The translations under genes and the position numbers were made by a program. A stretch of 64,000 nucleotides of DNA from Propionibacteriales bacterium (GTDB lineage: Bacteria; Actinomycetota; Actinomycetes; Propionibacteriales; Nocardioidaceae). This document shows positions 2,469 to 59,943 of this stretch, one piece after another (within the stretch, counting starts at the first letter, position 1; each line of letters starts with the position of its first letter). The stretch lies in contig JAPLCA010000008.1 of NCBI GenBank assembly GCA_026392465.1, positions 232,194-296,193 of the forward strand, given 5' to 3'. The notes under the pieces are model-generated. The model saw only the letters and a program-made list of their open reading frames with translations. It did not search any database and had not been told where the DNA came from.

Positions 2469-3661
2469 TGCTGACCGGACGCATCAAGGCGCAGATCGTG
2501 GCGTTCGTGGTCCTCGGGCTGCTCGCCACCTCCTACCTCGGCCTCAAGTACGTCGGCCTCGACCCGTTCTCGACGGGCTACACGGTGACGGCCACGCTGC
2601 CCGCCGCGGGAGGGGCGTTCGAGAACGGGCAGGTCACCTACCGTGGCGTGCCCGTCGGGCGCATCGACAAGCTCGACCCGACCGACGACGGCGTCCGGAT
2701 CACGATGTCCATCGAGGGTGGCGCGCCGCGCATCCCGGCGGACGCCAGCCCCAAGGTGGTCAACCGCTCCGCCATCGGCGAGCAGTACGTCGACCTGCAG
2801 GGCGGGACGGCCGGCGGCGCGGCGCTGAAGAACGGTGACCGGCTGAGCGCCGGGGCCGAGTCCCAGCCGCCGGACATCGACACGCTGCTGCGGTCGGGGG
2901 AGAAGTTCGTCGGCTCGGTGCCGAAGGAGGCGCTCACGTCGGTCATCGACGAGGGCTACGACGCGACGCAGGGGGTGGCGCTCGACTTCGGCTCGCTGCT
3001 GGAGAGCTCCCAGCGGTTCCAGAAGGCCGCCGACCGCAACTTCGTGGTCACCCGCGGTCTCATCGAGAACTCCGACCGGGTGCTGCGGACGCAGGAGGCG
3101 TCGTCGCAGAGCATCCGCTCGTTCAGCGCGGACCTGTCGACCATCGCCGCGACGCTCGAGTCGTCCGACGGCGACCTGCGCACCCTCATCGACAACACCC
3201 CGGCGGCGGCGCGCGAGATCGACACCCTCTTCCAGGAGGTGGGCCGCCCTCTCGGCGTCGTGCTCGCCAACCTGGTCACGCCGGCGCAGGTGTTCGGCAT
3301 CAACGCGAACGGTGTCCAGGACGCGCTGGTCACCGCGCCGAGGGCGTTCAGCATCGGCTGGACGATCACGGGCTCCCGGGGGATCAACCTCGCCCTCTCG
3401 CAGTCCTACTTCTCCCCGCTGCCGTGCACGACGGGCTACGGCGGCACGACCCCACGTCGCGGCACGGACACGTCGTCGGGTCAGTCGTTCAACCGCGACG
3501 CGGGCTGCCGCTCGGGCGCCGGGTCGTCGAACGTCCGAGGCCCGAAGAACGTCCCCAGCCGGTTGGGTCCCGCGCCCCGCCGCGACGCCGAGGGCCGGCT
3601 CGTGCGCGCCGACGTCCGCATGGCCGACTCGCTGGCCGACCTGATGGGTGGTGCACGATGA
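2465..3661 (+). CDS. Mce-family protein (MceF-like)
   Basis: Start is GTG 2465 or ATG 2468, overlapping the upstream stop. N-terminal TM IVAFVVLGLLATSYLGL. MCE core VTATLPAAGGAFENGQVTYRGVPVGRIDKL. Confidence 0.85.
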   Translation: MMLTGRIKAQIVAFVVLGLLATSYLGLKYVGLDPFSTGYTVTATLPAAGGAFENGQVTYRGVPVGRIDKLDPTDDGVRITMSIEGGAPRIPADASPKVVNRSAIGEQYVDLQGGTAGGAALKNGDRLSAGAESQPPDIDTLLRSGEKFVGSVPKEALTSVIDEGYDATQGVALDFGSLLESSQRFQKAADRNFVVTRGLIENSDRVLRTQEASSQSIRSFSADLSTIAATLESSDGDLRTLIDNTPAAAREIDTLFQEVGRPLGVVLANLVTPAQVFGINANGVQDALVTAPRAFSIGWTITGSRGINLALSQSYFSPLPCTTGYGGTTPRRGTDTSSGQSFNRDAGCRSGAGSSNVRGPKNVPSRLGPAPRRDAEGRLVRADVRMADSLADLMGGAR

Positions 3662-4284
3662 GCAGGACGACTGCGCTGGCCGAGCGTGGCAGCACGGGGG
3701 GAGACGGTGCCATGGAGGGGGCGACGAGCGACGCCGAGGTGCCCGACGGCGGTGGTCCGCCGACGTCGGACGAGCAGCCGCGAGGTCGCTGGCTGCTGGG
3801 CTGGGTGCTGCTCGCCGTGTCCCTCGCCGTCGCGGTGAGCGGCTCCGTGGCCTGGTGGAGCGCCGCGCACAGCGACGACCTGCAGCTGGCCCGCACGCGC
3901 GACGCCGTGCTCATCCGCGCCACCAGCGACATCGCCACGCTCAACAGCCTCGACTCCGCCGACGTGAAGGCCGGGCTCGACAGCTGGAAGGCGGTCACCA
4001 CCGGCACCCTGCACGACCAGTTCTCGGGGCTGGACGAGCAGGACCGCCAGCTCCTCGCCGACCAGGGCAAGGAGTCGCGCGGCAAGGTCGTCGACGCCGC
4101 CGTCCTCGACGTCGACGGCGACACCGCGGAGGTGATCGCGTCGGTCGAGACGACGGTGCGGGACGCGAAGGACGCCGACGCGGAGCCCGTCGTCAAGCGC
4201 AACCGGTTCACGGCGACCCTCGTCCGCTCGGGCGGGACGTGGAAGGTCAGCGACCTCCAGCAGCTCGCGGTGGAGCTCTCGTGA
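3658..4284 (+). CDS. Mce-associated membrane protein (Mas-like)
   Basis: ATG 3658 overlaps the MceF-like stop (ATGA). It has an acidic N-terminus, a single TM WLLGWVLLAVSLAVAVSGSVAWW and an NTF2-like C-terminal region. Its position directly after mceF is typical of Mas proteins. Confidence 0.7.
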   Translation: MSRTTALAERGSTGGDGAMEGATSDAEVPDGGGPPTSDEQPRGRWLLGWVLLAVSLAVAVSGSVAWWSAAHSDDLQLARTRDAVLIRATSDIATLNSLDSADVKAGLDSWKAVTTGTLHDQFSGLDEQDRQLLADQGKESRGKVVDAAVLDVDGDTAEVIASVETTVRDAKDADAEPVVKRNRFTATLVRSGGTWKVSDLQQLAVELS

Positions 4285-4787
4285 GGGGCGCGAGGCGGGC
4301 GGCCGTGGTCGTCGTGTCGCTGCTGGCCCTCGTCGCCGGCGGAGTCGGCTGGTGGCAGTACGTCGACCTCACGTCGGGTCCGGCCGCCGCCAACCGCGCG
4401 CTCGTCGACGCGAAGGAGACGTCGCAGGTGCAGTCGCAGGTGGCCGTCGCGCTCGAGCGCGTGCTCACCTACGACTACGCGGACCCGACGCCCACGGAGC
4501 AGTCCGCCGACGCCCTGCTCGCCGGCAAGGCCCGTCAGGAGTACGACACCCTGTTCGCCGCGCTGCAGAAGCAGGCCCCCGGCCAGAAGCTGGTACTCAC
4601 GGCGAAGGTCAGCACGGCCGGGGTGACCGAGCTGGAGGGCGACCATGCGGAGCTGCTGGTGTACGTGGACCAGTCCAGCCGTCGCGCAGGCGAGGACCAG
4701 GCCAACGTCTCCGCCGCGCAGCTGTCGGTGACGGCGAAGAAGTCGTCCGCAGGCACCTGGCAGGTCACCGGCCTGCGCCCCCTCTGA
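4281..4787 (+). CDS. Mce-associated membrane protein (second Mas-like paralog)
   Basis: GTG 4281 overlaps the upstream stop (GTGA). Single TM AAVVVVSLLALVAGGVGWW. The C-terminal region resembles the preceding gene (…VLTYDYADPT…, …AELLVYVDQ…). Confidence 0.65.
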   Translation: MRGARRAAVVVVSLLALVAGGVGWWQYVDLTSGPAAANRALVDAKETSQVQSQVAVALERVLTYDYADPTPTEQSADALLAGKARQEYDTLFAALQKQAPGQKLVLTAKVSTAGVTELEGDHAELLVYVDQSSRRAGEDQANVSAAQLSVTAKKSSAGTWQVTGLRPL

Positions 4788-4809
4788 CCCCTGCCGCCGG
4801 GGGTCGAGT

Positions 4810-4905
4810 CGCGCTGGGCTGTTGCCGGGTGGTCTCGATACGCGGAACGGAGCTCCTTCGTCGCCCGTTCCGCTACTCGACCAGCGGAGGGTCTCGCTGG
4901 TCGAG
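4810..4905. repeat. Interspersed intergenic repeat, family A (modules A1 + A2)
   Basis: A1 cgcgctgggctgttgccgggtggtctcgatacgc spans 4810-4843. The A2 hairpin ctactcgaccagcg-N8-cgctggtcgag spans 4873-4905. Both modules recur several times at 36702-37120. Confidence 0.8.
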
Positions 4906-4991
4906 TCGTCGATGCCGGACAGTCGGTGGGCTCGACGCAGGGAGAGCGGCGGGTGGGGCAGACTGGGCGTGGTCGAGAAGAGGGAGCACCG

Positions 4992-6023
4992 ATGGCCGAC
5001 ATCACCCGACGTCCGTTCCTGAACCACCTGCGGTCGGACCCGACGTCGTTCGTGCTGAAGCTCAAGGACGGCAAGGTCACGAAGTCCGGGGCGGGCGTGT
5101 CGTTCTGGTTCCGCCCCAGTACCGCCGCGCTGGCGGAGGTGCCGCTGGAGGACCGCGAGCAGGTGCTGCAGTTCACCGCGCGCACCAGCGACTTCCAGGT
5201 GGTGTCGGTGCAGGCCACCGTCACCTACCGCGTCGTCGACCCGGCCGTCGCCGCCACCCGCATCGACTTCGGCATCGACCCGCGCAGCGGCGACTGGAAC
5301 GCCCGCCCGTTGGAGCGGCTCGGCGGTCTGCTGACCGAGCTCGCCCAGCAGCCGGCGCTCGACCACCTCGCGGGCACCTCGCTGACCGACGCGCTCGCCC
5401 ACGGCATCGCGCCCGTGCGCCAGCGGGTCGCCGACGAGCTCGCCGGCGACCAGCGGCTCGTCGAGCGAGGCCTGGCCGTCACCGACGTCCGGGTCGTCGC
5501 GATCCGCGCGGAGGCGGACCTCGAGCGGGCCCTGCAGACCCCGACGCGCGAGGCCGTGCAGCAGCAGGCCGACCGCGCCACCTTCGAGCGGCGTGCCGTC
5601 GCGGTCGAGAAGGAGCGCGCGATCGCCGAGAACGAGCTGACCAACCAGATCGAGCTGGCGCGCCGCGAGGAGGAGCTGGTCACCCAGCGCGGACAGAACG
5701 AGCGTCGTCGGGCGACCGAGCAGGCGGAGGCCGAGCGGATCGCGGCGGCGGCACGCGCCGAGCGGGAGGGTCTGCTGGCACGCGCCGAGGCCGACCGCGC
5801 CCGCACCGTCGGCGAGGCGAAGGCAGCCGCCGAGGCGGCGGCGTTCGCGTCGTACGCCGAGATCGACCAGGGTCGGATCCTCGCGATCGCCGCACGCGAG
5901 CTCGCGGCGAACCTGCCGCCCCTCACGCACCTCTCCCTCACGCCCGACCTGCTCGCGCCGCTGCTGGAGAAGCTGGGCGACGCCGGTGCGGCAGGCGACC
6001 AGGAGGCCGGTCCGACGCGATGA
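4992..6023 (+). CDS. SPFH/band-7 domain protein with C-terminal coiled coil
   Basis: ATG 4992 is preceded by gagaagaggga. The SPFH-like core is VLQFTARTSDFQVVSVQATVTYRVVDP. A long E/A/R-rich helical region follows (ERRAVAVEKERAIAENELTNQIELARREEELV…). I saw no N-terminal TM. Confidence 0.75.
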   Translation: MADITRRPFLNHLRSDPTSFVLKLKDGKVTKSGAGVSFWFRPSTAALAEVPLEDREQVLQFTARTSDFQVVSVQATVTYRVVDPAVAATRIDFGIDPRSGDWNARPLERLGGLLTELAQQPALDHLAGTSLTDALAHGIAPVRQRVADELAGDQRLVERGLAVTDVRVVAIRAEADLERALQTPTREAVQQQADRATFERRAVAVEKERAIAENELTNQIELARREEELVTQRGQNERRRATEQAEAERIAAAARAEREGLLARAEADRARTVGEAKAAAEAAAFASYAEIDQGRILAIAARELAANLPPLTHLSLTPDLLAPLLEKLGDAGAAGDQEAGPTR

Positions 6024-9438: not shown

Positions 9439-10110
9439 TCATGCATCGCGCCACGGTGCACCGCCGTCGCGGCCTCGCCGCCCGCGTCGGCGACCGTCCC
9501 GTGCCCTGGGCGGCCAGCAGCGACGTCGGCGCCACTCCTCGGCGAGGATCGCGTAGGCGAGCCCGTCGACCCAGCCGAGGTCGCGGTGCAGCGCGTCCTG
9601 GCGGGTGTGGGCCTCGCGCCGCATCCCGACGCGCTCCATGAGTCGCCACGACGGCTCGTTAATGGCGAAGCACTCGGCGACGACGCGGCGCACGCCGAGC
9701 TCCTCGAAGCTGATCCGCAGCAGCTCCTCGACGGCCTCGGTCATGAGACCCCGCCCGTGATGGCTGGGGGCCAGCACCCAGGCCAGGACGGCGACCGTGT
9801 GGCGCGCCTGCTCGCGGACGTCCTTCTGCCCCCAGGCGTCGGCGACGGTGACCATGGTGTCGCCGACGACCTGCCCGTCGACCTCGACGGCGAGCGCGTC
9901 GGGGAGGTCGTCGGCGCCGAAGTGCGAGGCGACGAGCTCGTCGCGGGTCCGCGCCGGCCGGCCCAGCCACCGGTTCACGTCGGGGTCGCCGCGGTAGGCG
10001 AGCACGGCGTCGACGTCGTCGAGCGTGAGCGGACGCAGCGTGAGCCGGGCCGTGCGGCGCGGCCACGTCAGGTCCGCGAGCCGCGGGCGTCGAGGGTCGA
10101 GGTCGGGCAC
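9439..10110 (-). CDS. GNAT family N-acetyltransferase (RimJ/RimL-like)
   Basis: N-terminal RLTLRPLTLDDVDAVLAYRGDPDV. Acetyl-CoA binding region HHGRGLMTEAVEELLRISFEELGVRRV. The exact C-terminal extent is uncertain. Confidence 0.7.
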   Translation of the reverse strand: MPDLDPRRPRLADLTWPRRTARLTLRPLTLDDVDAVLAYRGDPDVNRWLGRPARTRDELVASHFGADDLPDALAVEVDGQVVGDTMVTVADAWGQKDVREQARHTVAVLAWVLAPSHHGRGLMTEAVEELLRISFEELGVRRVVAECFAINEPSWRLMERVGMRREAHTRQDALHRDLGWVDGLAYAILAEEWRRRRCWPPRARDGRRRGRRGRDGGAPWRDA

Positions 10111-16593: not shown

Positions 16594-17064
16594 ATGACCC
16601 TGCGCCGCCACCAGAAGGCCGTGCTCGCCGCCACGGCCGTCCCGACCCTGCTGCTCGCCGCCGCGTGCGGCCAGTCCTCCTCCGACGACGCGACGGGCAG
16701 CACGCCGAGCAGCGCCGCCACGAGCGAGTCGGCGTCCGCCGACACCGGCTCCTCGGAGTCGTCCGGCGACTACACCCCCGGGACCTACGAGGCGTCCGGT
16801 AGCTACTCCAACCCCGGCGGGACCTCGACGGTCGACGTCGAGGTGACGCTCGGCGACGTCGGGATCATCGACGCCGTCACCGTCACGCCGAAGGCCTCCG
16901 GCACCTCGAAGCAGTACCAGGAGAAGTTCGCCGGCGGCATCGCCGACGAGGTCGTCGGCAAGAACATCGACGACCTCGACGTCTCCAAGGTGGCCGGCTC
17001 CTCGCTGACGGCGGGCGGCTTCAACCAGGCGATCGACGAGATCAAGTCCGAGGCGCGGGGCTGA
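16594..17064 (+). CDS. FMN-binding-domain lipoprotein (candidate ApbE flavinylation substrate)
   Basis: Lipobox LLAAACG. The C-terminal motif LDVSKVAGSSLTAGGFNQAI resembles the FMN_bind signature (D..SGAT.T). Confidence 0.7.
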   Translation: MTLRRHQKAVLAATAVPTLLLAAACGQSSSDDATGSTPSSAATSESASADTGSSESSGDYTPGTYEASGSYSNPGGTSTVDVEVTLGDVGIIDAVTVTPKASGTSKQYQEKFAGGIADEVVGKNIDDLDVSKVAGSSLTAGGFNQAIDEIKSEARG

Positions 17065-17075
17065 CCGGACCTACC

Positions 17076-17819
17076 ATGTCCGTCATGGGCGACGCCGAGA
17101 CGACATCCTACGACCGTCGGGCGAGGCGCGCCGACCTCGGCGCCGACCTCGCGATCCTCGTGTTCGGCCTGGCCGGCGCGGCCGTGATCCTGACCCAGGT
17201 GCCCGCCGACGTGGTGGCGATGCAGGCGCTGGCCGTCTACGCGCTGTTCGCGGCGCTGGGCGCGGGCGTCCTCGCGGTCGCACGGCTGCGCACCCGCGCG
17301 TTCCCAGGGCTGCGTGAGGCCACCGTCGACGGCAGACCGGCCCGGGGGGTGCGCGCGTGGTCCGGCCCGTTCGTGCACAGCGTGTCGCTCGACGTCGGGC
17401 TCGTCGCACTCGGTGCGGTGGTGAGCTCGATCGGCGTCGCGTCGGGCTCGGCCTGGGCGGCCCTGTGGGTCCCGGCCCTGGTGGCCACGGCCTGGTTCGC
17501 GGTGCGCGTGGTGCTCGTCCTGGTCGGCCGCCGTCGGGTCGACGCGCTCTGGCTGACCGACCAGCACGTGGTCCACGACAGTGCGGCCGGTCGCGCCCGG
17601 ATCCCCCGCACGGACGTCGAGTCGGTGCGGCCCTGGAGCGGCGGCCTGTTCGTCGACGGCCCCACCAGCCGCTCGGGTCCACCGCTCGGCTTCCGAGCAG
17701 GGGCGCGCGCCCGACCCGGCGAGCTGCGTGTCGACACGTCGCTCATGGGAGTCGGTCCGCACGACCTCGCCGCCTGGTTGCGCGAGCAGCTCGACGACGA
17801 CGCGCGGCCCCGCCGTTGA
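17076..17819 (+). CDS. Hypothetical membrane protein (about 4 TM plus a cytoplasmic C-terminal domain)
   Basis: Track ORF with high third-position GC. Hydrophobic segments include LAILVFGLAGAAVIL, ALAVYALFAALGAGVLAV, VGLVALGAVVSSIGV and VPALVATAWFAVRVVLVLV. Confidence 0.5.
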   Translation: MSVMGDAETTSYDRRARRADLGADLAILVFGLAGAAVILTQVPADVVAMQALAVYALFAALGAGVLAVARLRTRAFPGLREATVDGRPARGVRAWSGPFVHSVSLDVGLVALGAVVSSIGVASGSAWAALWVPALVATAWFAVRVVLVLVGRRRVDALWLTDQHVVHDSAAGRARIPRTDVESVRPWSGGLFVDGPTSRSGPPLGFRAGARARPGELRVDTSLMGVGPHDLAAWLREQLDDDARPRR

Positions 17820-17844
17820 CCCGACCCGACCAGGAGGAGACGTG

Positions 17845-18150
17845 ATGACCCAGCCCTTCGTACAGGCCGGAACAGGCCGGCCCGCCCTGCCGCCCGTCGT
17901 GTACGTGCCGACGAGCGCGGCCGACGACCCGAGCCTGCGGGAGGTGCAGATGCACACCCTCGAGGACGGCCGGACGGCCCTCTTCGTGTACTCCGCGATC
18001 GACCGGCTGCACGACCTCTACCGCCCCGACGTGCCGTGGCTGCTGTGCGACGTCGCCACCTTGCAGCGCGTGCACGACGAGACCCCGTACGACCTCCTGT
18101 TCCTCGACCTCGACCCCGGCCTGCGCGACGGTGAGGAGGCCCGACGATGA
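17845..18150 (+). CDS. SseB-like / SAV_915-like small protein
   Basis: ATG 17845 follows aggaggag. The ~100-aa sequence …VVYVPTSAADDPSLREVQMHTLEDGRTALFVYSAIDRL… matches my recollection of the actinobacterial SseB N-terminal-domain family, which is often next to secreted toxins. Confidence 0.55.
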   Translation: MTQPFVQAGTGRPALPPVVYVPTSAADDPSLREVQMHTLEDGRTALFVYSAIDRLHDLYRPDVPWLLCDVATLQRVHDETPYDLLFLDLDPGLRDGEEARR

Positions 18151-18449
18151 GCATCGACGTCGACCTGGCGGTGCTCGGCACCATCGCCACCGACCTGACC
18201 GACGCGGGGACCACCCTGAGCGGCATCGACACCGCCGGGTCGTCGGGCGTCGACGCCGGACCGATGACCGCGGTCATCGCCTCGATGGTGGCGCAGGTGA
18301 TCGACAGCGCCGCGAACGTCGCCGACGGGCTGAGCGGCACGGGCACCCTCGTCGGCCTCAGCCGCGAGTACTACCAGCGGGCGGACGCCGATGCCGAGGT
18401 GTCCCTGGAGGACATCCGGTCCACCATGCAGGAGGAGGGCGGACGGTGA
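18147..18449 (+). CDS. Small helical T7SS-target-like protein (DUF2580/ESX-associated-like)
   Basis: ATGA overlap with the upstream gene. This 100-aa Ala/Gly/Asp-rich helical protein starts MSIDVDLAVLGTIATDLTDAG, and LSREYYQRADADAE lies near the C-terminus. The family call is from memory and tentative. Confidence 0.45.
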   Translation: MSIDVDLAVLGTIATDLTDAGTTLSGIDTAGSSGVDAGPMTAVIASMVAQVIDSAANVADGLSGTGTLVGLSREYYQRADADAEVSLEDIRSTMQEEGGR

Positions 18450-19681
18450 GCATCGACACCGAGATCGAGGGTTCGCCGAGCAGCGTCAAGGGTGTCGCGA
18501 CCTGGCTCCGCCAGACGCTCGCGACGGCTCTCGACGCCGCCGCCGACGCCGCGAGCACGGCGCGGTCGTCGGCGCTCGGCTCCTGGAACGGGGAGGCCGG
18601 GGACGAGTTCCTCGACGTCGCGCGCCGGCTCCGCACGGGCGGGGACGACCTGGCCGGGGCGGCACGGGACATGGCGGGCGACCTCGACGAGTTCGCGACG
18701 TCGCTGACGACGTGCCAGAGCGACATGGCCGACGTCCGCAGCACTGCACGGGAGGCGGGGCTGACCGTCGCCGGGTTCGTCGTGCAGCACCCCGGCGACG
18801 GTCCCGCACGACCTCCCGAGCACTTCGAGGGCACGGAGGCCGAGGTGGCCGCGCACGACCAGCGGGTCGCCGAGTACAACGCGCACCAGGACAAGCTCAC
18901 CGCCTACGCGGCCGCGCAGACCGAGGCCTCGCGGGTCGACCGGGTCTACGAGACCGCCTGCCGGTCCCTGCAGGACCAGTACACCCCCGGCCAGCACGCC
19001 AGCTGGCTGCTGAGCCTCGCCGAGGCGGTCGGCGAGGGTGCGGCCGCTGGTGTCGCCAGCCAGCGGGCCAACGCGCTGCGCACCCAGGCGCAGGGTCTGC
19101 TCGACGAGGCGTCCCGCGCCATCGCCGACCTCCAGGCCAACCCCGACCGGTACGTCCAGCGTCGCTGGTTCTTCTTCGAGCGGGTCGACACCGCGCGGCT
19201 CGAGGCCGACCGCCTGGCGATCGCCGGCAAGCTGGACGAGGCGCAGGACCTGCTCGCCCGGGCCAACGCCGCCGGCGAGTCGCGGCTGCCGGCCAACCTC
19301 GGCCGGGTCGGCAAGGCGCTCGGCGTGATCGGGCTCGGGCTCGGCGTCTACAACGACTACGCCGAGGGCGAGACGGCTCCCCAGATCGCGACGTCGCAGG
19401 GCGTGTCCTTCCTCGCCGGCATGGGCACGGGAGCCGCAGCCGGAGCGGCGATCGGCTCGGTCGTGCCGGTCGCGGGCACGGCCGTCGGCGCGGTCGCGGG
19501 GACGATCATCGGTGCCGGCGTGGCGATCTTCTCCGACGGCATGATCGACTCCTTCTTCGAGAACGGCCCCGACGTCGGCGAGGCGTTGTCCGAGGGTGTA
19601 GAGGCACTCGGCGACACCGCCTCGGCGATCGGCGACGGCATCGGCGGCGCCGTCAGTGCCGTGGGCGGCTGGTTCGATTGA
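18446..19681 (+). CDS. WXG100-like/T7SS-signal-type N-terminal domain protein with a C-terminal glycine-zipper membrane module (candidate pore-forming toxin)
   Basis: GTG 18446 (GTGA overlap). WxG motif LGSWNGEAGDEF. A long helical middle region follows. The C-terminal ~110 aa is GKALGVIGLGLGVYNDY…GMGTGAAAGAAIGSVVPVAGTAVGAVAGTIIGAGVAIFSDG…IGDGIGGAVSAVGGWFD, with repeated GxxxG/AxxxG spacing. Confidence 0.6.
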   Translation: MSIDTEIEGSPSSVKGVATWLRQTLATALDAAADAASTARSSALGSWNGEAGDEFLDVARRLRTGGDDLAGAARDMAGDLDEFATSLTTCQSDMADVRSTAREAGLTVAGFVVQHPGDGPARPPEHFEGTEAEVAAHDQRVAEYNAHQDKLTAYAAAQTEASRVDRVYETACRSLQDQYTPGQHASWLLSLAEAVGEGAAAGVASQRANALRTQAQGLLDEASRAIADLQANPDRYVQRRWFFFERVDTARLEADRLAIAGKLDEAQDLLARANAAGESRLPANLGRVGKALGVIGLGLGVYNDYAEGETAPQIATSQGVSFLAGMGTGAAAGAAIGSVVPVAGTAVGAVAGTIIGAGVAIFSDGMIDSFFENGPDVGEALSEGVEALGDTASAIGDGIGGAVSAVGGWFD

Positions 19682-20580
19682 CCGGGGTCGGTCCGCGCGC
19701 CGCGACGGTGGCGTGGGACTTCGAGGCGATCGGGACGGCGTGGGAGATCGACACCGCGCAGCCGCTCGCGCCGGAGGTCGAGGCGGCCGTGCTCGCGCAG
19801 TTCGAGCGTTTCGACCGCACCTGGTCGCGCTTCCTCGCCGACTCCACCGTCGCCGCCATGGCGCGTGAGCCGGGCACCTGGCAGCTCGAGGGGGCCGACG
19901 CCCTGATCACGCTCTACGACGACCTGCACACCGCCACCGACGGAGCGGTGACGCCGCTCGTCGGACGGTCGCTGGAGGACCTCGGGTACGACGCGGGGTA
20001 CTCGCTGCAGCCGTCCGGTCGTCCTCAGGTGCCCGAGGACTGGTCGCGCGTCCGTCGTGACGGGACGCTCGTGGTCGGCGGCGGACAGGTCACCACGACC
20101 CGCCCGCTGCTGCTCGACGTCGGGGCTGCGGGGAAGGGTCTGCTGGTGGACCTCGTCGTCGACGTGCTCGCCGACCACGGTGTCGAGGAGGCGACGGTGG
20201 ACGGCAGCGGCGACCTGCGGCACGTCGGCGGCACGCCGATCCGCGTCGCCCTCGAGCACCCGGGCGACGCGTCTCGCGCCGTCGGCGTCGTCGAGGTCGC
20301 CGACGGGTGGGCGCTCTGCGCGTCGGCCGTCAACCGACGGACGTGGGGCGACGGACTGCACCACGTCGTCGACGGCCGCACCGGCCGGCCGACCCGCGAC
20401 GTCGTCGCCAGCTGGGCCCTCGTGGACGGGTCCTGCATGGTCGCCGACGGCCTGGCCACCGCGCACTTCTTCGCCGACCCGCAGACGCTGCTCGACCTCC
20501 ACCCGCACCACTTCGTCCGGATCCACGCCGACGGCCGCGTGCTGCGGTCGCCCGACCTCCCTGGGGAGCTGTTCACATGA
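19678..20580 (+). CDS. apbE: FAD:protein FMN transferase (ApbE family)
   Basis: The ApbE layout is recognised from WDFEAIGTAWEI, LLLDVGAAGKGLLVD, ATVDGSGDL, CASAVNRRTWG, HHVVDGRTGRP and ADGLATA. The start is uncertain: TTG 19678 overlaps the upstream stop, with GTG 19708 as the alternative. Confidence 0.8.
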   Translation: MTGVGPRAATVAWDFEAIGTAWEIDTAQPLAPEVEAAVLAQFERFDRTWSRFLADSTVAAMAREPGTWQLEGADALITLYDDLHTATDGAVTPLVGRSLEDLGYDAGYSLQPSGRPQVPEDWSRVRRDGTLVVGGGQVTTTRPLLLDVGAAGKGLLVDLVVDVLADHGVEEATVDGSGDLRHVGGTPIRVALEHPGDASRAVGVVEVADGWALCASAVNRRTWGDGLHHVVDGRTGRPTRDVVASWALVDGSCMVADGLATAHFFADPQTLLDLHPHHFVRIHADGRVLRSPDLPGELFT

Positions 20581-31079: not shown

Positions 31080-34000
31080 TCAGACGTTGCGCCGGTACTG
31101 ACCGCCGACCTCGAAGAACGCCTCGGTCACCTGCTGCAGGGTGCACACGCGTGCGGCGTCCATGAGGACCGCGAACACGTTCTCGCCCGATGTCGCCGCG
31201 TGCTTGAGCCGCGCGATCGCCTCCTCGGCACTCGACCGGTGCCCCTGCTGGAAGGCGTGCACCCGGTCGAGCTGCGACTGCTTCTCCGACTCCGTGGCCC
31301 GCGCCAGCTCGACCACGGGCTCCTCGGCCTCGACGTCGGGCCGGCGGAAGGTGTTGACGCCGATGATCGGCAGCGAGCCGTCGTGCTTGCGGTGCTCGTA
31401 CAGCATCGACTCGTCCTGGATCCGGCCCCGCTGGTAGCCGGTCTCCATCGCGCCCAGCACGCCGCCGCGCTCGTTGATCGCGTCGAACTCGGCCAGCACC
31501 GCGGACTCGACGAGGTCGGTCAGCTCGTCGATGACGAACGAGCCCTGGAGCGGGTTCTCGTTCATCGCCAGGCCCCACTCGCGGTTGATGATCAGCTGGA
31601 TGGCCAGGGCCCGCCGGACCGACTCGGTCGTCGGCGTCGTGACGGCCTCGTCGTAGGCGTTGGTGTGCAGGCTGTTCGCGTTGTCGTAGATCGCGATGAG
31701 CGCCTGCAGGGTCGTGCGGATGTCGTTGAAGTCCATCTCCTGCGCGTGGAGGGAGCGACCCGACGTCTGCACGTGGTACTTCAGCTTCTGGCTGCGCTCG
31801 TTCGCGCCGTACTTCTCCTTCATCGCCACCGCCCAGATCCGCCGGGCGACGCGCCCGAGCACCGAGTACTCCGGGTCCATGCCGTTGGAGAAGAAGAACG
31901 ACAGGTTGGGGGCGAAGTCGTCGACGTCCATCCCGCGCGCGAGGTAGGACTCCACGTAGGTGAAGCCGTTGGCGAGGGTGAAGGCGAGCTGGCTGATGGG
32001 GTTCGCCCCGGCCTCGGCGATGTGGTAGCCGGAGATCGAGACGGAGTAGAAGTTCCGCACGCCCTCGTCGATGAAGTACTGCTGGATGTCGCCCATCATG
32101 CGCAGGCTGAACTCGGTGGAGAACAGGCACGTGTTCTGGCCCTGGTCCTCCTTGAGGATGTCGGCCTGCACGGTGCCGCGCACGTTCCTCAGGGCGTGGG
32201 AGCGGAGCTCGGCGTGCTCGGTCTCGTTCGGCTCGCGGCCCTCGCGCTCGCGGAACGCGTCGACCTGCTGGTCGATGACGGTGTTGAGGAAGAACGCGAG
32301 CACCGTCGGCGCGGGCCCGTTGATCGTCATCGAGACCGACGTCGAGGGCGAGACCAGGTCGAAGCCGTCGTACAGCGCCTTCATGTCGTCCAGCGTCGCG
32401 ACGGAGACGCCTGACGTGCCGACCTTGCCGTACACGTCCGGACGCGGGTCGGGGTCGCGTCCGTAGAGGGTCACGGAGTCGAAGGCGGTGGAGAGGCGGG
32501 TGGCGTCGCCGTCGTCGCTGAGCAGCTTGAACCGGCGGTTGGTGCGGAACGGGTCGCCCTCGCCGGCGAACATGCGGGCCGGGTCCTCACCGTCCCGCTT
32601 GAACGGGAAGACGCCCGCCGTGTACGGGAAGAAGCCGGGCAGGTTCTCCCGACGCCAGAAGCGCACCAGGTCGCCGTGCCCGGTGAACCGGGGGAGGGAG
32701 ACGCGCGGGATCTTGCTGCCCGAGAGCGACTCGCGGGTCAGCCGGGTGACGATCTCCCGGTCGCGGACCTTCACGACCTGCTCGTCGCCGGAGTAGGCCT
32801 CGACGACGGCCGGCCAGTCGGCGATCTGGTCGGCGACCTCGTGGGGGACCTGCTTGCGGGCGGAGTCGAGGAGCGTCTCCGCGGCGACGGCGTCGAGGCC
32901 GGCGTCGGCGAGCTCGGCGGCCGTGGTCTCGAGCCGCTGGGCGCGGTCGGCGGCGTCGGCCAGGCGTTCGGTCTCCACGTGGTACCCGCGGACCGTCTCG
33001 GTGATCTCGGAGAGGTAGCGGGCGCGGTCGGCGGGGACCACGGCCTGGATGCCCGTGGAGCACCGCACGGCCACCGGTGCCAGGGTGCCCTCGGCGACCG
33101 GCAGGCCGTGCTCGGCGAGGTGGTCGCGCAGGTGCTGGTAGAGCGCCGTGACACCGTCGTCGTTGAACGTGGCGGCCGACGTGCCGAAGATCGGCATGTC
33201 CTCGGGCTTCTTGCCGAACGCCTCGCGGTTGCGCACCAGCTGGCGGCCGACGTCGCGGTAGGCGTCCTTCGCGCCGCGTCGCTCGAACTTGTTGATCGCG
33301 ACGACGTCGGCGAAGTCGAGCATGTCGATCTTCTCCAGCTGCGACGCGGCGCCGAACTCCGGCGTCATGACGTACATCGCGGTGTCGACGTGCGGGACGA
33401 TCGCGGCGTCGCCCTGCCCGATGCCGGGAGTCTCCACGACCACGAGGTCGAACCCGGCGGCCTTGAGCACGGCGACGACGTCGTCGAGGCAGTCGGGCAG
33501 CTCGTGGGAGCCGCGGGTGGCGAGGGAGCGGAAGTAGACGCGTTCCCCGTCGAGGGAGTTCATGCGGATGCGGTCGCCGAGGAGTGCACCGCCGCCGCGG
33601 CGACGGGTGGGGTCGACCGCGACGACGGCGAGGCGCAGCTTGTCCTGCTGGTCGACGCGGAACCGACGCACGAGCTCGTCGGTGAGCGAGGACTTGCCCG
33701 AGCCACCGGTGCCGGTGATGCCGAGGACCGGGGAGGGGTGGCCGGCGGCCGCCTCGCGGACGCGCTCGAGGTCGGCTCCGGTGAGCCGGCCCGCCTCGGC
33801 GAAGGTGAGGGCGCGGGCCACGGCGGAGCGCTCACCCGCGAGCACGGCCTCGACGTCGAGAGGACCGGCGGAGGTGAGGTCGACGTCGCAGGCCTCGACG
33901 ACGGAGCTGATCATGCCCGCGAGGCCCATGCGCTGGCCGTCCTCGGGGGAGAAGATCGTGACGCCCGACGCGCGCAGCCGGGCGATCTCCTCGGGGACGA

Positions 34001-34307
34001 TGACGCCGCCCCCGCCGCCGACGACCTGCACGTGACCGGCGCCCTGCTCGCGCAGGGACTCGACGAGGTACTCGAAGTACTCGACGTGCCCGCCCTGGTA
34101 GGACGAGACGGCCACGCCCTGGACGTCCTCCTCGATCGCGGCGTCGACGACCTCCTTGACCGAGCGGTTGTGGCCGAGGTGGATGACCTCCGCGCCCTGG
34201 CTCTGGAAGATCCTCCGCATGATGTTGATCGACGCGTCGTGCCCGTCGAAGAGCGCCGACGCGGTGACGAGTCGGACGGGGTGCGTGGGCACGTGCAGCG
34301 CAGTCAT
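31080..34307 (-). CDS. icmF: Fused isobutyryl-CoA mutase IcmF (B12-binding + MeaB-like GTPase + mutase domains)
   Basis: 1075 aa. The N-terminal B12-binding domain carries DGHDASINIM, the G-protein domain carries GTGGSGKSS, and the C-terminal part is a methylmalonyl-CoA-mutase-like TIM barrel. Confidence 0.95.
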   Translation of the reverse strand: MTALHVPTHPVRLVTASALFDGHDASINIMRRIFQSQGAEVIHLGHNRSVKEVVDAAIEEDVQGVAVSSYQGGHVEYFEYLVESLREQGAGHVQVVGGGGGVIVPEEIARLRASGVTIFSPEDGQRMGLAGMISSVVEACDVDLTSAGPLDVEAVLAGERSAVARALTFAEAGRLTGADLERVREAAAGHPSPVLGITGTGGSGKSSLTDELVRRFRVDQQDKLRLAVVAVDPTRRRGGGALLGDRIRMNSLDGERVYFRSLATRGSHELPDCLDDVVAVLKAAGFDLVVVETPGIGQGDAAIVPHVDTAMYVMTPEFGAASQLEKIDMLDFADVVAINKFERRGAKDAYRDVGRQLVRNREAFGKKPEDMPIFGTSAATFNDDGVTALYQHLRDHLAEHGLPVAEGTLAPVAVRCSTGIQAVVPADRARYLSEITETVRGYHVETERLADAADRAQRLETTAAELADAGLDAVAAETLLDSARKQVPHEVADQIADWPAVVEAYSGDEQVVKVRDREIVTRLTRESLSGSKIPRVSLPRFTGHGDLVRFWRRENLPGFFPYTAGVFPFKRDGEDPARMFAGEGDPFRTNRRFKLLSDDGDATRLSTAFDSVTLYGRDPDPRPDVYGKVGTSGVSVATLDDMKALYDGFDLVSPSTSVSMTINGPAPTVLAFFLNTVIDQQVDAFREREGREPNETEHAELRSHALRNVRGTVQADILKEDQGQNTCLFSTEFSLRMMGDIQQYFIDEGVRNFYSVSISGYHIAEAGANPISQLAFTLANGFTYVESYLARGMDVDDFAPNLSFFFSNGMDPEYSVLGRVARRIWAVAMKEKYGANERSQKLKYHVQTSGRSLHAQEMDFNDIRTTLQALIAIYDNANSLHTNAYDEAVTTPTTESVRRALAIQLIINREWGLAMNENPLQGSFVIDELTDLVESAVLAEFDAINERGGVLGAMETGYQRGRIQDESMLYEHRKHDGSLPIIGVNTFRRPDVEAEEPVVELARATESEKQSQLDRVHAFQQGHRSSAEEAIARLKHAATSGENVFAVLMDAARVCTLQQVTEAFFEVGGQYRRNV

Positions 34308-34666
34308 GCGAACTCCTAGGAAGTCAGATGCTCGGACATCCTACTAAATGGTGATGGGGGCCGCCAGGTCTCCGTCAGGCTCCCGCCGGACTCCTTCTGT
34401 CCGGGGAGGCATTCGGTGACGGCGTCGTGCAGCACCTCTGCGCCTTCGCTCCCCAGCGCCACGTGTGACGACCGAGCCTCGCCGATCGCCTCGCCGCGGC
34501 CACGCCCGTCCGCTCCGCTCTCACGGAGTCGCTCGGTCCAGACACTGAGGCTCGTCACGGTCACCCTGCCGTCGTACGCGTGCCCCGAGCCTGGCTGAGG
34601 CGGAGCTGTGGAGGCAACCCTCGTCGACGCCGTCCGCACGGGCGGCGGCCCCCCTATGATCGGGCC

Positions 34667-35300: not shown

Positions 35301-36632
35301 TCAGGCATCGTGGCGCCACTCGATGACGGGAGCTGCGACCCGTGGGTAGTGCTCGATGACGACGACCTGAGGTTCGGTCCGGCGGTTCCAGGCGCGGGTG
35401 AACGCGGTCTGGGCGGGGATGGTGCGGGTGGGGAGGTGCCAGTGGGCGTTGCCGTGCTCGTCGTGGGTGACGGTCAGGGCTCCTCGGGTCTTGAGGCCGT
35501 GGTGGGGTGGGCAGCGGTGGTGCAAGTTCGCGGCGGTGGTGGGGCCACGTTGCTGCCCGGGTGGTTGTCCTGGTGGTGGGTCGGGGTCGTGCGGGATCTG
35601 GTGGTCGAGGTCGCAGGCGACGGCGGGGCGGGTGCAGCCGGGAACGTCACACGTGCCGTCGATCAGGTTCAACGCCCTGCGGAGGGGCTGGGTGGGGAAG
35701 CGGCCGAGCTCGGTGACGTCCAGGATCCCGCCGTTCTCGTCGGTCAACAACCGCGAGAACAGCGTCCCCTCTTGGGTGGCGAGCTCGGCGAGCAGGGCAG
35801 GGTCGAGGACGTGCTGCCCATCGGCCGACACAGCCGGCTCGCTCGAGACACCGAGCAGGGTGGCGAGGGAGACGGTGATGCCGAGGTGGAACCTGCCCCG
35901 CCCTGACGTGCCGACCGGCACGCGGCCAGCGTCGGTGTCGGTCTCGCGCTTGCGCAGGAGGGTGTCGGTGAGGGCGTCGGCGCGGGCCTGCGCCAACGTC
36001 CGGTCGTCGTCGGGGCTCTGGCTGCGGGAGGCTTTCGCTGCGAGGGTCAGGTCACGGTCGATCAGCACCGCGTCAGCGGTGGGGATGAGGGCCTGGAGCA
36101 GGCTCATCCCGTCATCCAGCGCGGTGATCGTGACAGTGCGATCCTCCTGCGCAGCCTGGCGGCGGGCGGTGGCGTGGTCGGGTTCGACCCGGACGAGGAA
36201 CCTGCGTAGCCAGCTCTTGAGCTGGCCCAGGGTGTGGGTGGTGGCGTAGGCGAGCACGGTCTCGTCCAACCGGGCGATGTTCTCCGGCGCGTGGAGCTTC
36301 CAGGCAGTGGAGGCGATCTCCCGCGCTTTGGCCCGGTCGACCTCACCGGCCTGGTGCGCAGCCCACACGGTCGGCAGGTCCATCACCAGGGTCCGGGTCG
36401 CCGAGACCAGGTTCGCGACGAACCCCTGCGCGACGTTGAGCTCGACCGCGGCTTCGAGGATCGCGACCTGCCGGGCGTCCTCCACCTGACGCGCGCTCAA
36501 TCCTTGGGTGAGGGCGTCGGTGCGGCGGGTCTCGACGAACCGCAGCACCGCCCGCGCCTGTTCCGCCTCCGCAGCCCACACCCGACGCGACGCGTCGACT
36601 GCGTCGGCCAGGAGGGTGTCGGTGGGGTTCAT
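35301..36632 (-). CDS. DUF222 / HNH endonuclease protein (13E12-repeat-like family)
   Basis: The N-terminal DUF222 pattern has AAEAEQARAVLRFVE. The C-terminal HNH region is CDVPGCTRPAVACDLDHQIPH…NLHHRCPPHH. Confidence 0.85.
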   Translation of the reverse strand: MNPTDTLLADAVDASRRVWAAEAEQARAVLRFVETRRTDALTQGLSARQVEDARQVAILEAAVELNVAQGFVANLVSATRTLVMDLPTVWAAHQAGEVDRAKAREIASTAWKLHAPENIARLDETVLAYATTHTLGQLKSWLRRFLVRVEPDHATARRQAAQEDRTVTITALDDGMSLLQALIPTADAVLIDRDLTLAAKASRSQSPDDDRTLAQARADALTDTLLRKRETDTDAGRVPVGTSGRGRFHLGITVSLATLLGVSSEPAVSADGQHVLDPALLAELATQEGTLFSRLLTDENGGILDVTELGRFPTQPLRRALNLIDGTCDVPGCTRPAVACDLDHQIPHDPDPPPGQPPGQQRGPTTAANLHHRCPPHHGLKTRGALTVTHDEHGNAHWHLPTRTIPAQTAFTRAWNRRTEPQVVVIEHYPRVAAPVIEWRHDA

Positions 36633-36701
36633 AGTTCCAACCTAGGCACCCCCTCCGACACCACCCTCCAGCCCAGAAAACCCTGTGGACGCAGCGATTC
36701 T

Positions 36702-55192: not shown

Positions 55193-55219
55193 GGCTCGGC
55201 CCGGGATGCCGCCAACGAC

Positions 55220-55247
55220 TCCCAGGAGCTGCAGCCCGCTCCTGGGA
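55220..55247 (+). terminator. Hairpin downstream of the SnoaL-like gene
   Basis: tcccaggagc-tgcagccc-gctcctggga forms a 10-bp perfect stem. There is no T-run. Confidence 0.35.
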
Positions 55248-55276
55248 CTCGGAACAGCCGTGACACGGTGCTGGTT

Positions 55277-55334
55277 TGGCGGAGGAGAGGAGACTCCGTC
55301 GCTCGTCCCGCCCCCGGCTCCTCCTCGAATCCGC
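55277..55334 (-). repeat. tRNA-Ser-derived mini-repeat R1 (older att remnant or pseudo-tRNA fragment)
   Basis: On the minus strand it reads GCGGATTCGAGGAGGAGCC…GGAGTCTCCTCTCCTCCGCCA. It therefore keeps a GGATTCG 5' end and a CTCCTCCGCCA 3' end, but has no D or anticodon arms. It is similar to R2. Confidence 0.5.
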
Positions 55335-55381
55335 TAGCCCAGATCAGCGCCGGAGAACCCCTGGGCACGGTCTGGGCACGA

Positions 55382-55417
55382 AAGAACCCCTCGACATCGC
55401 AATGCCGAGGGGTTCTT
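55382..55417. other. Strong 12-bp hairpin between R1 and R2
   Basis: aagaacccctcg-acatcgcaatgc-cgaggggttctt forms a perfect stem. Confidence 0.5.
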
Positions 55418-55423
55418 GACCTC

Positions 55424-55475
55424 TGCGGAGGATAGGTGACTCCGTCGCTCGTTCCTCGCTCCTCCTCGAATCGCC
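55424..55475 (-). repeat. tRNA-Ser-derived mini-repeat R2 (distal att-like site of the island)
   Basis: The forward sequence tgcggaggataggtgactc… shares gcggaggatagg with the 3' end of tRNA-Ser at 60276-60287. The rest parallels R1 (…gactccgtcgctcgt.cc…gctcctcctcgaatc). Confidence 0.55.
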
Positions 55476-55491
55476 ATGCTCGACCACGCAC

Positions 55492-55526
55492 CACGGCCCC
55501 CCAGCAAAGAACGCTGGGGGGCCGTG
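55492..55526. other. Strong 12-bp GC hairpin immediately upstream of the HTH gene
   Basis: cacggcccccca-gcaaagaacgc-tggggggccgtg forms a perfect stem ending 5 nt before GTG 55531. Confidence 0.5.
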
Positions 55527-55530
55527 GAAC

Positions 55531-55974
55531 GTGGCGGAAGTTGTGCGGGCCAACTCGAAGTTCGCATGGATGCTTCCGAGCCTCAAGAAGGCTCGGGAGA
55601 TGGTGCTAGAAGCGGAGGATCGACAGACCAAGTCTTCGGGCACCCGAGTCCATCGGTTGTCGCAGCGATTGCCAGCGGAGGTCCTGGATGCTGTGGTCGC
55701 GGACTACGAGGGTGGGGGAGTCTCGACGGTCATATTGGGTGAAAGGCACGGAATCTCGGACTCGACGGTGAGGACGTTGCTGCATGGGCGAGGAGTGGCC
55801 ACACCACAGCGGAAGCTCAGTGAAGCTGACGTGGACGAGGTCGTGAGGATGTACGAACAGCAGATGACAATGCAGGCAATGGGTGAGCGGTTCGGGGTGA
55901 ATCGGGTGACGGTGCGTAATGCGCTGAGGCGACGAGGAGTTGAGTTGCGACGGCGGAGCTCGGCTCGATCCTGA
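55531..55974 (+). CDS. Hypothetical protein with two tandem helix-turn-helix motifs
   Basis: Track ORF, with the start uncertain (GTG 55531 or ATG 55570). Two similar ~45-aa units are present: LPAEVLDAVVADYEGGGVSTVILGERHGISDSTVRTLLHGRGV and LSEADVDEVVRMYEQQMTMQAMGERFGVNRVTVRNALRRRGV. Confidence 0.5.
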   Translation: MAEVVRANSKFAWMLPSLKKAREMVLEAEDRQTKSSGTRVHRLSQRLPAEVLDAVVADYEGGGVSTVILGERHGISDSTVRTLLHGRGVATPQRKLSEADVDEVVRMYEQQMTMQAMGERFGVNRVTVRNALRRRGVELRRRSSARS

Positions 55975-56129
55975 CACTTCGCGCACGGGGTGGACGAGGA
56001 ATCACTCCGGTGAACCAAACCCCGCTGTGCGACTCCGCTTGGCGATCGAGGGAAGCCTGGTCGAGTGAAGGCGACCCCCGCGATGCACTCGATGGATCAG
56101 TAGTCCCACTGGGCTCCAGCTGCGCCGGT

Positions 56130-56411
56130 CTAGTACTCCGGAAGCGAAAGCAGATTGTCGTTCCACTCGCCGTTGGCATACGTCCTGATGTATGGGGCTG
56201 AACCAGTTGGGTGCACCGTCCCCACCTCGACGTAGTCGGTAGGGAATGTACCGACTATCGCTCGGTTCGACTCCGATCGATCTAATTAATCGACCGTAGT
56301 CTCTCGGGTGCTGGATCCGGTCGCACCGCTGTCGACATTGCACCATTGGACGTCTGAAATGTGCTCGTGGCGGTGTCCGCCGACCATGTGCCTCGCAATA
56401 ATTTCAATCAT
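56130..56411 (-). pseudogene. DUF3892-like gene interrupted by an in-frame TAA
   Basis: ATG 56411 follows ggagattcgac. It translates as MIEIIARHMVGGHRHEHISDVQWCNVDSGATGSSTRETTVD*LDRSESNRAIVGTFPTDYVEVGTVHPTGSAPYIRTYANGEWNDNLLSLPEY*. The internal TAA lies at 56286-56288, inside the AT-rich gattaattagatc. Confidence 0.6.
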
Positions 56412-56503
56412 GTCGAATCTCCAACCATTCCAACGTAGCTAGGTTGGGAAAGCGGTCACGACGGCCCGATCTGTAAGGCCACCATACATTCTGGAGGTCT
56501 CGG

Positions 56504-57106: not shown

Positions 57107-57111
57107 CCGTG

Positions 57112-59002: not shown

Positions 59003-59005
59003 CCC

Positions 59006-59461: not shown

Positions 59462-59569
59462 CTCCTGAGTTGTTGATGGTTCTGCAAAAACTGCGTAGGC
59501 TTCTGAATACGGTCAGTCCGGAACTCCTCCCGACGCGCCGCGGTACAGAGTCGCGAGGGAAGCGAGAGG

Positions 59570-59845: not shown

Positions 59846-59943
59846 GTGCGCGGCTCGTCGGACGGACCTTCTCGTGTTTCGTCGCGAGCGTGCGCGCTGC
59901 CTCGATCCGACACCTTGAGCGAACGGGACTGGCTCTGGCGTGG

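Follow-up and report, generated by a model that had tools for sequence, protein, structure and literature searches.

The window analysed here is a 64,000-nucleotide (nt) stretch of actinobacterial DNA (contig JAPLCA010000008.1, positions 232,194 to 296,193) with a guanine-plus-cytosine (GC) content of 70-75%, and its large open reading frames (ORFs) encode metabolic and transport proteins. At 17065-19707 it carries an insertion of four genes, here called g1 to g4, which on the evidence of their anatomy and distribution probably form a self-contained, horizontally mobile toxin-immunity cassette of the T7SS (type VII secretion system, or ESX) substrate type. The features of the cassette and of the two host genes that flank it are as follows, with lengths in amino acids (aa); L053 and L054 are related loci that lack the cassette.

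17065..19707, plus strand: the entire inserted four-gene cassette, with bounds taken from comparison with the empty site in L053
17076..17819, plus strand: g1, 247 aa, a four-transmembrane (4-TM) protein with a C-terminal soluble domain of ~95 aa; candidate membrane immunity protein
17845..18150, plus strand: g2, 101 aa, a small SAV_915/SseB-like alpha/beta protein, soluble; candidate for chaperoning or neutralising the toxin module in the cytoplasm
18147..18449, plus strand: g3, 100 aa, a helical hairpin; EsxB/PE-like candidate export partner
18446..19681, plus strand: g4, 411 aa, GTG start; candidate effector
18446..18979, plus strand: g4 N-terminal domain, residues 1-178; predicted WXG100-superfamily, PPE-like targeting domain
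18980..19681, plus strand: g4 C-terminal candidate toxin module, residues ~179-411, comprising a helical region, a glycine-zipper hairpin and an acidic tail
19403-19531, plus strand: g4 glycine-zipper hairpin, residues 320-362, placed by hydrophobicity and GxxxG statistics
19535-19579, plus strand: g4 tail motif DGxIDSxFENGPDVG, found family-wide
16594..17064, plus strand: left-flank host gene for an FMN_bind-like lipoprotein, not part of the cassette; it directly precedes ApbE in L053 and L054
19708..20580, plus strand: right-flank host gene for ApbE, an FAD:protein FMN transferase, not part of the cassette (Pfam ApbE, E 9e-35)

A sequence-only reading of this region had described four co-directional genes with overlapping stops and starts. 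The shared direction stands, as do the overlaps at g2/g3 (ATGA) and g3/g4 (GTGA), but g1 and g2 do not overlap and are separated by a 25-nt gap that contains AGGAGG. The same reading's outline of the products agrees with our results throughout. The proposed 4-TM protein with a cytoplasmic domain, g1, has hydrophobic segments at residues ~22-44, 48-70, 100-122 and 128-150, followed by ~95 soluble residues, with an Arg-rich pattern on the cytoplasmic side. The ~100-aa SseB-like protein, g2, is a member of the NCBIfam family SAV_915 (NF042914; 53.3 bits with a cut-off of 40 bits; E 1.7e-14) and matches Pfam SseB weakly (E 3.5e-3). The 100-aa helical T7SS-target-like protein is g3, a hairpin with a conserved YxxxD, and the 411-aa protein with a WXG-type N-terminus is g4, in which W47-N-G (W47 at 18584-18586) lies at the turn of a predicted helix-turn-helix. 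The downstream gene is, as had been proposed, apbE.

The cassette begins 11 nt 3' of the lipoprotein gene, and ApbE, a membrane-bound FAD/NAD reductase and ClpB come after it. At the empty site in L053 and L054, ApbE follows the lipoprotein gene directly; the L054 lipoprotein orthologue has a faint FMN_bind match on record. When the window is aligned to L053, homology ends with the stop codon of the lipoprotein gene (17064) and picks up again inside ApbE at 19719, making the cassette a ~2.65-kilobase (kb) insertion in a flavin-trafficking operon. The stop codon of g4 overlaps a possible TTG start of ApbE at 19678; the native start is probably the GTG at 19708, which is favoured because the L053 and L054 orthologues can be aligned with this N-terminus from 'W(D/T/A)FEAIG' on. 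No direct or inverted flanking repeats, integrase or transposase accounting for the insertion were found, and a scan for promoters and terminators was uninformative in this DNA of 73% GC. By its ApbE homologues the host is an Aeromicrobium-like actinobacterium (the ApbE in the window is 78% identical to that of named Aeromicrobium), and contigs of the same species from several metagenomes have the same gene order.

A same-species locus, L043, provides a closer view of the cassette edges. Over window positions 16995-20294, the cassette is 96-99.7% identical between the two and the backbone 92-94%, which suggests a recent exchange or sweep of the cassette. Identity falls sharply to 83% at 19695, and the 5' half of ApbE (19695-20294) lies below the backbone level, a pattern that suggests a recombination breakpoint where the cassette ends on the right. 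Purifying selection acts on each of the four genes, with a ratio of non-synonymous to synonymous substitution rates (dN/dS) of ~0.09-0.13.

The tight co-directional packing within a lipoprotein-ApbE-reductase operon, together with the overlap of the g4 stop with a possible ApbE start, would also suit a housekeeping Nocardioidaceae membrane complex in which g4, tail-anchored by its hairpin, works with the lipoprotein, ApbE and the reductase. That explanation is very improbable, given that the ApbE context recurs in 0 of the 42 other loci with a related cassette and is limited to the window's lineage, that the lipoprotein and ApbE genes are directly adjacent in relatives, and that a search of 185,579 species-representative genomes yielded no more than 40 loci. 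On synteny, this explanation is already contradicted. The sequence-only reading had asked for a survey of the cassette's conservation and had held that order-wide synteny of a housekeeping protein would speak against an effector. The survey returned the 42 related loci, patchily distributed, with flanks and contexts that differ between genera and are never beside T7SS genes, and with empty sites in close relatives.

The candidate toxin region is the C-terminal part of g4. Glycine makes up 23% of its last 127 residues versus 7% elsewhere in the protein, and residues 320-362 are a hydrophobic hairpin built around Pro341, which is invariant. This hairpin contains 6 GxxxG motifs versus 1.95 +/- 1.1 in composition-preserving shuffles (p ~0.001), and Gly-zipper_Omp matches 13 of 60 g4 family members, below threshold. 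The C-terminal glycine zipper expected of LXG toxins is thus present in g4 as a sequence feature only. The last 50 residues are instead an acidic tail (10 D/E, no K/R) that opens with the almost invariant DG(A/M)IDSxFENGPDVG. The earlier description of this C-terminus as consisting almost entirely of GxxxG repeats was therefore right about the zipper and overstated its extent. In a separate search, PHROGs gave weak matches (E 2e-5 to 4e-3) between g4 residues 280-385 (19310-19600) and internal glycine-rich hydrophobic segments of phage tape-measure proteins and tail lysins, and these matches are probably compositional. Glycine-rich hydrophobic tape-measure segments are also thought to enter membranes.

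The same module is found on other carriers. In the locus L037 it forms the last ~250 residues of a 1,785-aa RHS protein, directly after DPLGL, where it shows the motif xGAIDSLFENGxDVG; the rest of that protein consists of Hydro_N_hd, DUF6531 and 23 RHS repeats. The toxin slot in RHS proteins lies after DPLGL. In L036, L040 and P0258 the module follows Hydro_N_hd, and six other N-termini also carry it, while 90 of the 98 long sequences compared share the g4-type (WXG100_2-type) N-domain and form one BLAST-connected group. The occurrence of one C-terminal module on different trafficking domains is what is expected of a polymorphic toxin, and both its RHS toxin position and its place behind a second type of N-domain support the effector reading that had been made from the letters. 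Comparison of the carriers puts the start of the shared module near g4 residue 179, so the helical 'stalk' is part of the toxin module, which spans ~230 residues (~179-411) rather than the last ~110 proposed before. A profile search with the module retrieved 154 clusters at 50% identity (E <= 1e-10), most of them ~400 aa long with the module at the C-terminus. The 143 close homologues of g4 are all full length and 45-87% identical, and their hosts include Nocardioides, Aeromicrobium, Marmoricola, Knoellia and Serinibacter.

With the module pointing to a toxin, g3 and the N-terminal domain of g4 have the features of a putative export pair. In g3 the motif Y76-Q-R-A-D80 (18372-18386) has an invariant D80 and, in at least 90% of relatives, Y75/Y76, so that relatives keep YYxRxD. 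No curated family was found for g3, but its family profile aligns near end-to-end with CFP-10/EsxB (1wa8_A and others), placing YqraD over YSRAD, at a marginal E of ~0.1. In g4, all 60 sequences keep W47, A51 and G52 are conserved, and the G of the WxG varies. The AlphaFold2 model of g4 is confident for residues 1-180, with helices at 11-46 and 50-103 and the WxG at the turn 47-49. At E <= 0.01, WXG100_2 matches 52 of the 60 g4 family members and WXG100 matches 30. The list of Foldseek matches for the g4 model consists mostly of long coiled-coil proteins, with good superposition for the PPE matches only: PPE41, PPE4 and PPE15 are the best real superpositions of the N-domain, and 2g38_B (PPE41) aligns with probability 1.00, a TM score of 0.68 and a root-mean-square deviation of 4.5 over 181 columns. 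Neither Pfam PE (PF00934) nor PPE (PF00823) matches anything in the cassette at E <= 1, a PDB sequence profile search for g4 returned nothing, and the sequence has no signal peptide. On its sequence matches, the cassette is a member of the WXG100 superfamily in the broad sense, and not of PE/PPE by profile.

The distribution of g3 fits a role as partner of the N-domain. Counting the window, it is present in 37 of 43 loci, being absent from the RHS locus, from three fragmentary or contig-edge loci and from the two Hydro_N_hd carriers L036 and L040, and it occurs only where g4 has a WXG-type N-domain. As a side observation, the starts of g3 (18133-18163) and g4 (18432-18462) share a 31-nt stretch that is 84% identical (GAGGAGG..N..TGAGCATCGAC), and both proteins begin MSID(V/T)(D/E); this common start could reflect an old duplication of the hairpin gene or an N-terminal feature common to the pair.

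A PE/PPE-like pair need not deliver a weapon. It could be a T7SS substrate that acts as a channel or anchor in the cell's own envelope, for nutrient uptake or surface display, or one that binds a non-bacterial or epibiont target, as has been proposed for AesB, and the PPE-like fold of the g4 N-domain and the full-length conservation of the orthologues would suit such a role. So would the example of AesB, an Esx effector of Schaalia with a glycine-rich region and a conserved C-terminal motif, which is reported also from Propionibacteriales and has no reported immunity protein. However, the AesB motif GYNVP is absent from g4 and the 268 relatives examined, and the glycine-rich stretch here is hydrophobic and conserved rather than variable and disordered. 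A non-weapon substrate also leaves the module in an RHS toxin slot, the dedicated 4-TM gene that is always adjacent and also occurs as an orphan, and the patchy distribution with empty sites in close relatives to be explained, and we regard it as unlikely.

The 4-TM gene is the most constant companion of the module. Neither a curated family nor a PDB sequence profile search gave a match for g1, and a hint of a bacterial PH domain was seen in its family (bPH_10, best E 5e-3, 2 of 11 members). A hidden Markov model of the g1 family located a gene beside the toxin gene in 42 of 42 related loci as well as in the window. They share the direction of the toxin gene in every case and lie upstream of it and/or immediately downstream, often overlapping its stop codon, and 14 loci have two copies. 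Across the cassette, conservation decreases in the order g2, g4, g3, g1, with the g1 family diverging fastest (19-44% identity, falling to 19-33%); immunity proteins typically diverge fast.

Two loci retain the 4-TM gene after loss of the toxin. In L033 (Nocardioides sp. YR527), an intact 4-TM gene comes after the remnant of a toxin gene truncated at its 5' end, and g2 and g3 are absent. In L052 (Aeromicrobium GCA_031453195.1; 92-95% nt identity to the window), a 1,686-nt in-frame deletion of g2-g4 leaves g2, from its codon 13, joined to the final 35 codons of g4. Despite this deletion, g1 is intact there, with 240 of 247 residues identical (97%), 27 synonymous versus 7 non-synonymous differences and a dN/dS of 0.096. 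If g1 protects the cell from external toxin, it would be kept where the toxin is lost. The sequence-only reading had seen no obvious immunity gene nearby, yet had allowed that the upstream 4-TM protein might supply the function. The constant adjacency and the orphan copies make g1, by its position, the candidate membrane immunity protein.

L052 also carries a second, divergent cassette with the same four parts at 2675-5436, ~1.2 kb upstream of the lipoprotein gene. Its products are a 4-TM protein of 245 aa, a g2-like protein of 94 aa, a g3-like protein of 196 aa (YHEAD) and a g4-like protein of 385 aa (WHG, with a glycine zipper of its own), and it sits between Pyr_redox_2 and HTH_20 genes. 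At the corresponding position the window (~13.1-15.5 kb) and L053 carry MDMPI_N and an ABC-2 transporter, and L043 carries nothing. This is a variable site adjoining the insertion site.

The soluble protein g2 is the most conserved component (43-73% identical across loci), and its orthologues are annotated at source as 'SAV_915 family protein'. It is present in 39 of the 43 loci, being absent from the RHS locus L037 and from three fragmentary or contig-edge loci, and it is kept with the Hydro_N_hd carriers L036 and L040. Thus g3 tracks the N-domain, g2 tracks the module outside the RHS shell, and the 4-TM gene tracks the module always (42 loci and the window). The AlphaFold2 model of g2 shows a small alpha/beta fold with a predicted local distance difference test (pLDDT) score of 78.5, and a PDB sequence profile search gave nothing. 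We also asked whether g2 could be the only immunity protein, in the manner of TipE with TelE, and rejected this, as the RHS locus has a 4-TM gene without g2, and orphan loci retain the 4-TM gene and not g2. No paper on SAV_915 was found in the literature.

From the observed gene anatomy, motifs, modularity of the module, co-occurrence patterns, insertion, deletions and purifying selection, we propose the following model, in which T7SS export, membrane depolarisation and the individual roles of g1 and g2 are inferred from anatomy and distribution. The effector would be g4, whose residues 1-178 are predicted to form a WXG/PPE-like helical bundle. This bundle would pair with the g3 hairpin to create a bipartite export signal, WxG from g4 and YxxxD from g3, to be read by an EccC-type machine encoded elsewhere in the genome. 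Residues ~179-411 would be the toxin, with the hairpin at 320-362 entering the cytoplasmic membrane of a neighbouring cell, oligomerising via its GxxxG faces and dissipating the membrane potential. In the producer, g2 may hold the zipper soluble and harmless in the cytoplasm before export, and g1, polytopic with a cytoplasmic tail, may guard the membrane against toxin arriving from outside.

Several results weigh against this model. As the sequence-only reading had noted, no FtsK/EccC-type ATPase is found among the large ORFs of the 64-kb window, and no T7SS core genes lie in the window or, in the 42 relatives, within 10 kb of the cassette. Support from structure is partial: the Foldseek check proposed earlier did superpose g4 on PPE proteins, but all E-values for g4 exceed 0.08 and are not significant, and the g2 model has no significant neighbour in the PDB (best TTHA0547, E 0.2), so that the 'chaperone' label for g2 rests on distribution and not on fold. 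The g4 of the window falls below the gathering scores of both WXG100_2 (23.2 bits versus 27, E 7e-5) and WXG100 (18.3 versus 27.3). The remote similarities to PPE, to EsxB and, for the window protein, to WXG100_2 are each marginal and gain weight only from their mutual consistency. The g4 module is modelled with a pLDDT below 35, and the hairpin is drawn from hydrophobicity and motif statistics only. The RHS fusion is known from 1 locus and the Hydro_N_hd fusions from 2 loci, mostly in metagenome-assembled genomes. Unlike classic polymorphic toxins, the g4 family shows no C-terminal hypervariability; it aligns over its full length, with the C-terminus best conserved.

A further point against the model comes from L044 (GCA_001625915.1, same species), in which g1 has a 296-nt frameshifting deletion and g2-g4 are intact. 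The deletion, at 9739-9743 of that locus and corresponding to window ~17290-17585, removes TM3-TM4 of g1 and has short microhomology at its bounds. This argues against g1 as sole protection, unless L044 is an assembly variant or has another copy; the deletion could be an assembly or population variant, or a second protective gene could lie elsewhere.

The lack of secretion machinery near the cassette, and a small soluble partner (g2) as tightly conserved as this one, would also be expected of an intracellular abortive-infection or toxin-antitoxin-like module, in which an unexported g4 is checked by g2 and/or g1 and freed on phage infection. In two Nocardioides genomes the cassette does stand amid defence-type genes (L041, 1-8100 and 17700-20300; L049, 1-7400 and 14500-16000), with DNA methylase, Z1, GmrSD_N, DUF4420, Vsr, HATPase_c_3, DUF6339 and OLD-like TOPRIM genes as neighbours, in what looks like a variable island. 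However, PADLOC returned nothing for any of the four proteins, the PHROGs matches are compositional only, and the cassette was not found in plasmid and phage collections. The WxG and YxxxD pair and the RHS-shell fusion point to export, and retention of g1 after loss of g2-g4 would be purposeless in a purely internal system. Such a module is therefore, in our judgement, rather improbable. Compared with an exported toxin that has dedicated immunity, all three alternatives are a poorer match to the RHS fusion, to the orphan 4-TM genes and to the empty sites.

Other observations in the window are unrelated to the cassette or lie far from it. The stretch 55200-60521 has a low GC fraction (0.60-0.63 versus 0.72) and lacks the usual signal in GC at third codon positions (GC3). 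It is adjoined by a tRNA-Ser(GGA) at 60275-60362 and a signal recognition particle (SRP) RNA at 60425-60521, and its ORFs encode an ATP-binding cassette (ABC) ATPase (58337-59002, minus strand), an HTH/sigma-r4-like protein (55531-55974) and two proteins of 416 and 203 aa without a Pfam match; it is probably a tRNA-associated genomic island. At 31080-34340 (minus strand) lies a gene for an IcmF-like fusion of B12-binding, MeaB GTPase and methylmalonyl-CoA mutase domains (1,086 aa), adjoined by a DUF222 protein gene at 35301-36641 (minus strand); both are ordinary genes unrelated to the cassette.

To our knowledge, Firmicutes (staphylococci and streptococci) are the only bacteria in which membrane toxins delivered by a T7SS, with dedicated immunity, are established, and we found no paper on T7SS in Nocardioides or Aeromicrobium. 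We suggest, tentatively, that g4 could be the first antibacterial or anti-epibiont membrane toxin to be recognised in a non-mycobacterial actinobacterial ESX system, carried on a PE/PPE-like pair, with SAV_915 and 4-TM-plus-PH-like protection, in a mobile promoter-less cassette. If this is true, PE/PPE-like pairing would predate and extend beyond Mycobacterium, SAV_915 would be a cytoplasmic glycine-zipper sequestering factor and the 4-TM-plus-PH-like family a membrane immunity family, and the whole unit would move as a promoter-less cassette into host operons. The model would assign roles to SAV_915, the 4-TM family and the toxin module, all three as yet uncharacterised. For the function of the widespread Esx system in Actinobacteria beyond mycobacteria, this cassette family, with at least 154 mostly unannotated clusters at 50% identity, is a compact and testable model. 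It makes a PE/PPE-like pair available in a genetically simpler, non-pathogenic background, and the close relatives supply natural controls in which the site is empty, has lost the toxin or has lost the candidate immunity gene.

Among known systems, the closest analogue is EsxX with ExiAB and ExiCD rather than TspA, the type that the sequence-only reading had favoured. Experiments on EsxX, from the T7SSb of Staphylococcus aureus ST398, showed that its glycine zipper is sequestered in the cytoplasm by ExiAB, a soluble alpha/beta protein that co-occurs with the toxin, and that the polytopic ExiCD protects from outside and is found as an orphan in non-producers (PMC12258717, a 2025 preprint). The two systems are alike in combining an N-terminal helical targeting domain with a C-terminal glycine zipper (depolarising in EsxX) and in having a small helical partner with an (F/Y)xxxD export motif. 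The distribution of g2, with the toxin, resembles that of ExiAB, and the distribution of g1, which also occurs alone, resembles that of ExiCD. In contrast, they have no family in common: LXG, DUF5344/DUF5082, DUF5085 and DUF5079/5080 are not matched here. In particular, no LXG (PF04740) or Lap-family match was found in the cassette at E <= 1, and no Pfam match to DUF443, DUF5085 or DUF5079/5080 in g1, g2 or 11 members of the 4-TM family. The N-domain here is WXG100_2/PPE-like, the soluble partner is a single SAV_915 protein rather than a heterodimer, and g1 has 4 TM segments and a cytoplasmic domain versus 6 TM helices in the membrane protein of the EsxX system. The host is actinobacterial, presumably with a T7SSa, and no secretion locus lies near the cassette.

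TspA of S. aureus has its immunity from the membrane protein TsaI (DUF443; PMC7456083), whereas TelE of Streptococcus gallolyticus is countered by the small soluble TipE (DUF5085; PMC10434224). Both resemble g4 as T7SS toxins that depend on a C-terminal glycine-zipper or membrane-depolarising domain, and both differ from it in their LXG N-domains, Firmicute Lap partners and unrelated immunity families, with no homology to the module detected by Pfam.

The actinobacterial comparisons are with CpnT, PE/PPE-EspG and AesB. The CpnT locus of Mycobacterium tuberculosis (EsxE/EsxF, IFT) is similar in being an actinobacterial operon for a T7SS toxin, in which genes for small Esx-like partners lie upstream of that for a two-domain toxin, and the N-domain of CpnT gives g4 relatives their family label (CpnT-like N-terminal / WXG100_2). 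The CpnT toxin domain is reported to be an NAD+ glycohydrolase that acts against host cells, with a soluble immunity factor (PMC8092274); here, the C-terminus looks like a membrane hairpin, and a membrane protein is the candidate for immunity. The PE/PPE-EspG systems of Mycobacterium share with the cassette a ~100-aa YxxxD/E hairpin and a ~180-aa WxG helical domain from translationally coupled genes. The cassette departs from them in lacking a Pfam PE/PPE match, a significant Foldseek match and an EspG-like gene, the g2 model having a different small alpha/beta fold. The Esx effectors AesA and AesB of Schaalia odontolytica are reported also from Propionibacteriales, and AesB is described as having an N-terminal helical domain, a variable glycine-rich region predicted to be disordered and the motif GYNVP, with no immunity gene described (PMC13622651, a 2026 preprint). 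AesB and g4 both have a helical N-terminus, a stretch rich in glycine for which AlphaFold gives no usable model and a C-terminal motif that is conserved; by description only, they differ in that the glycine-rich region here is conserved and hydrophobic and the motif is DGxIDSxFENGPDVG. By analogy, then, the cassette may work like the Firmicute LXG glycine-zipper systems without being a member of them, and most likely represents a counterpart of their T7SS membrane toxins that is widespread in actinobacteria and as yet uncharacterised.

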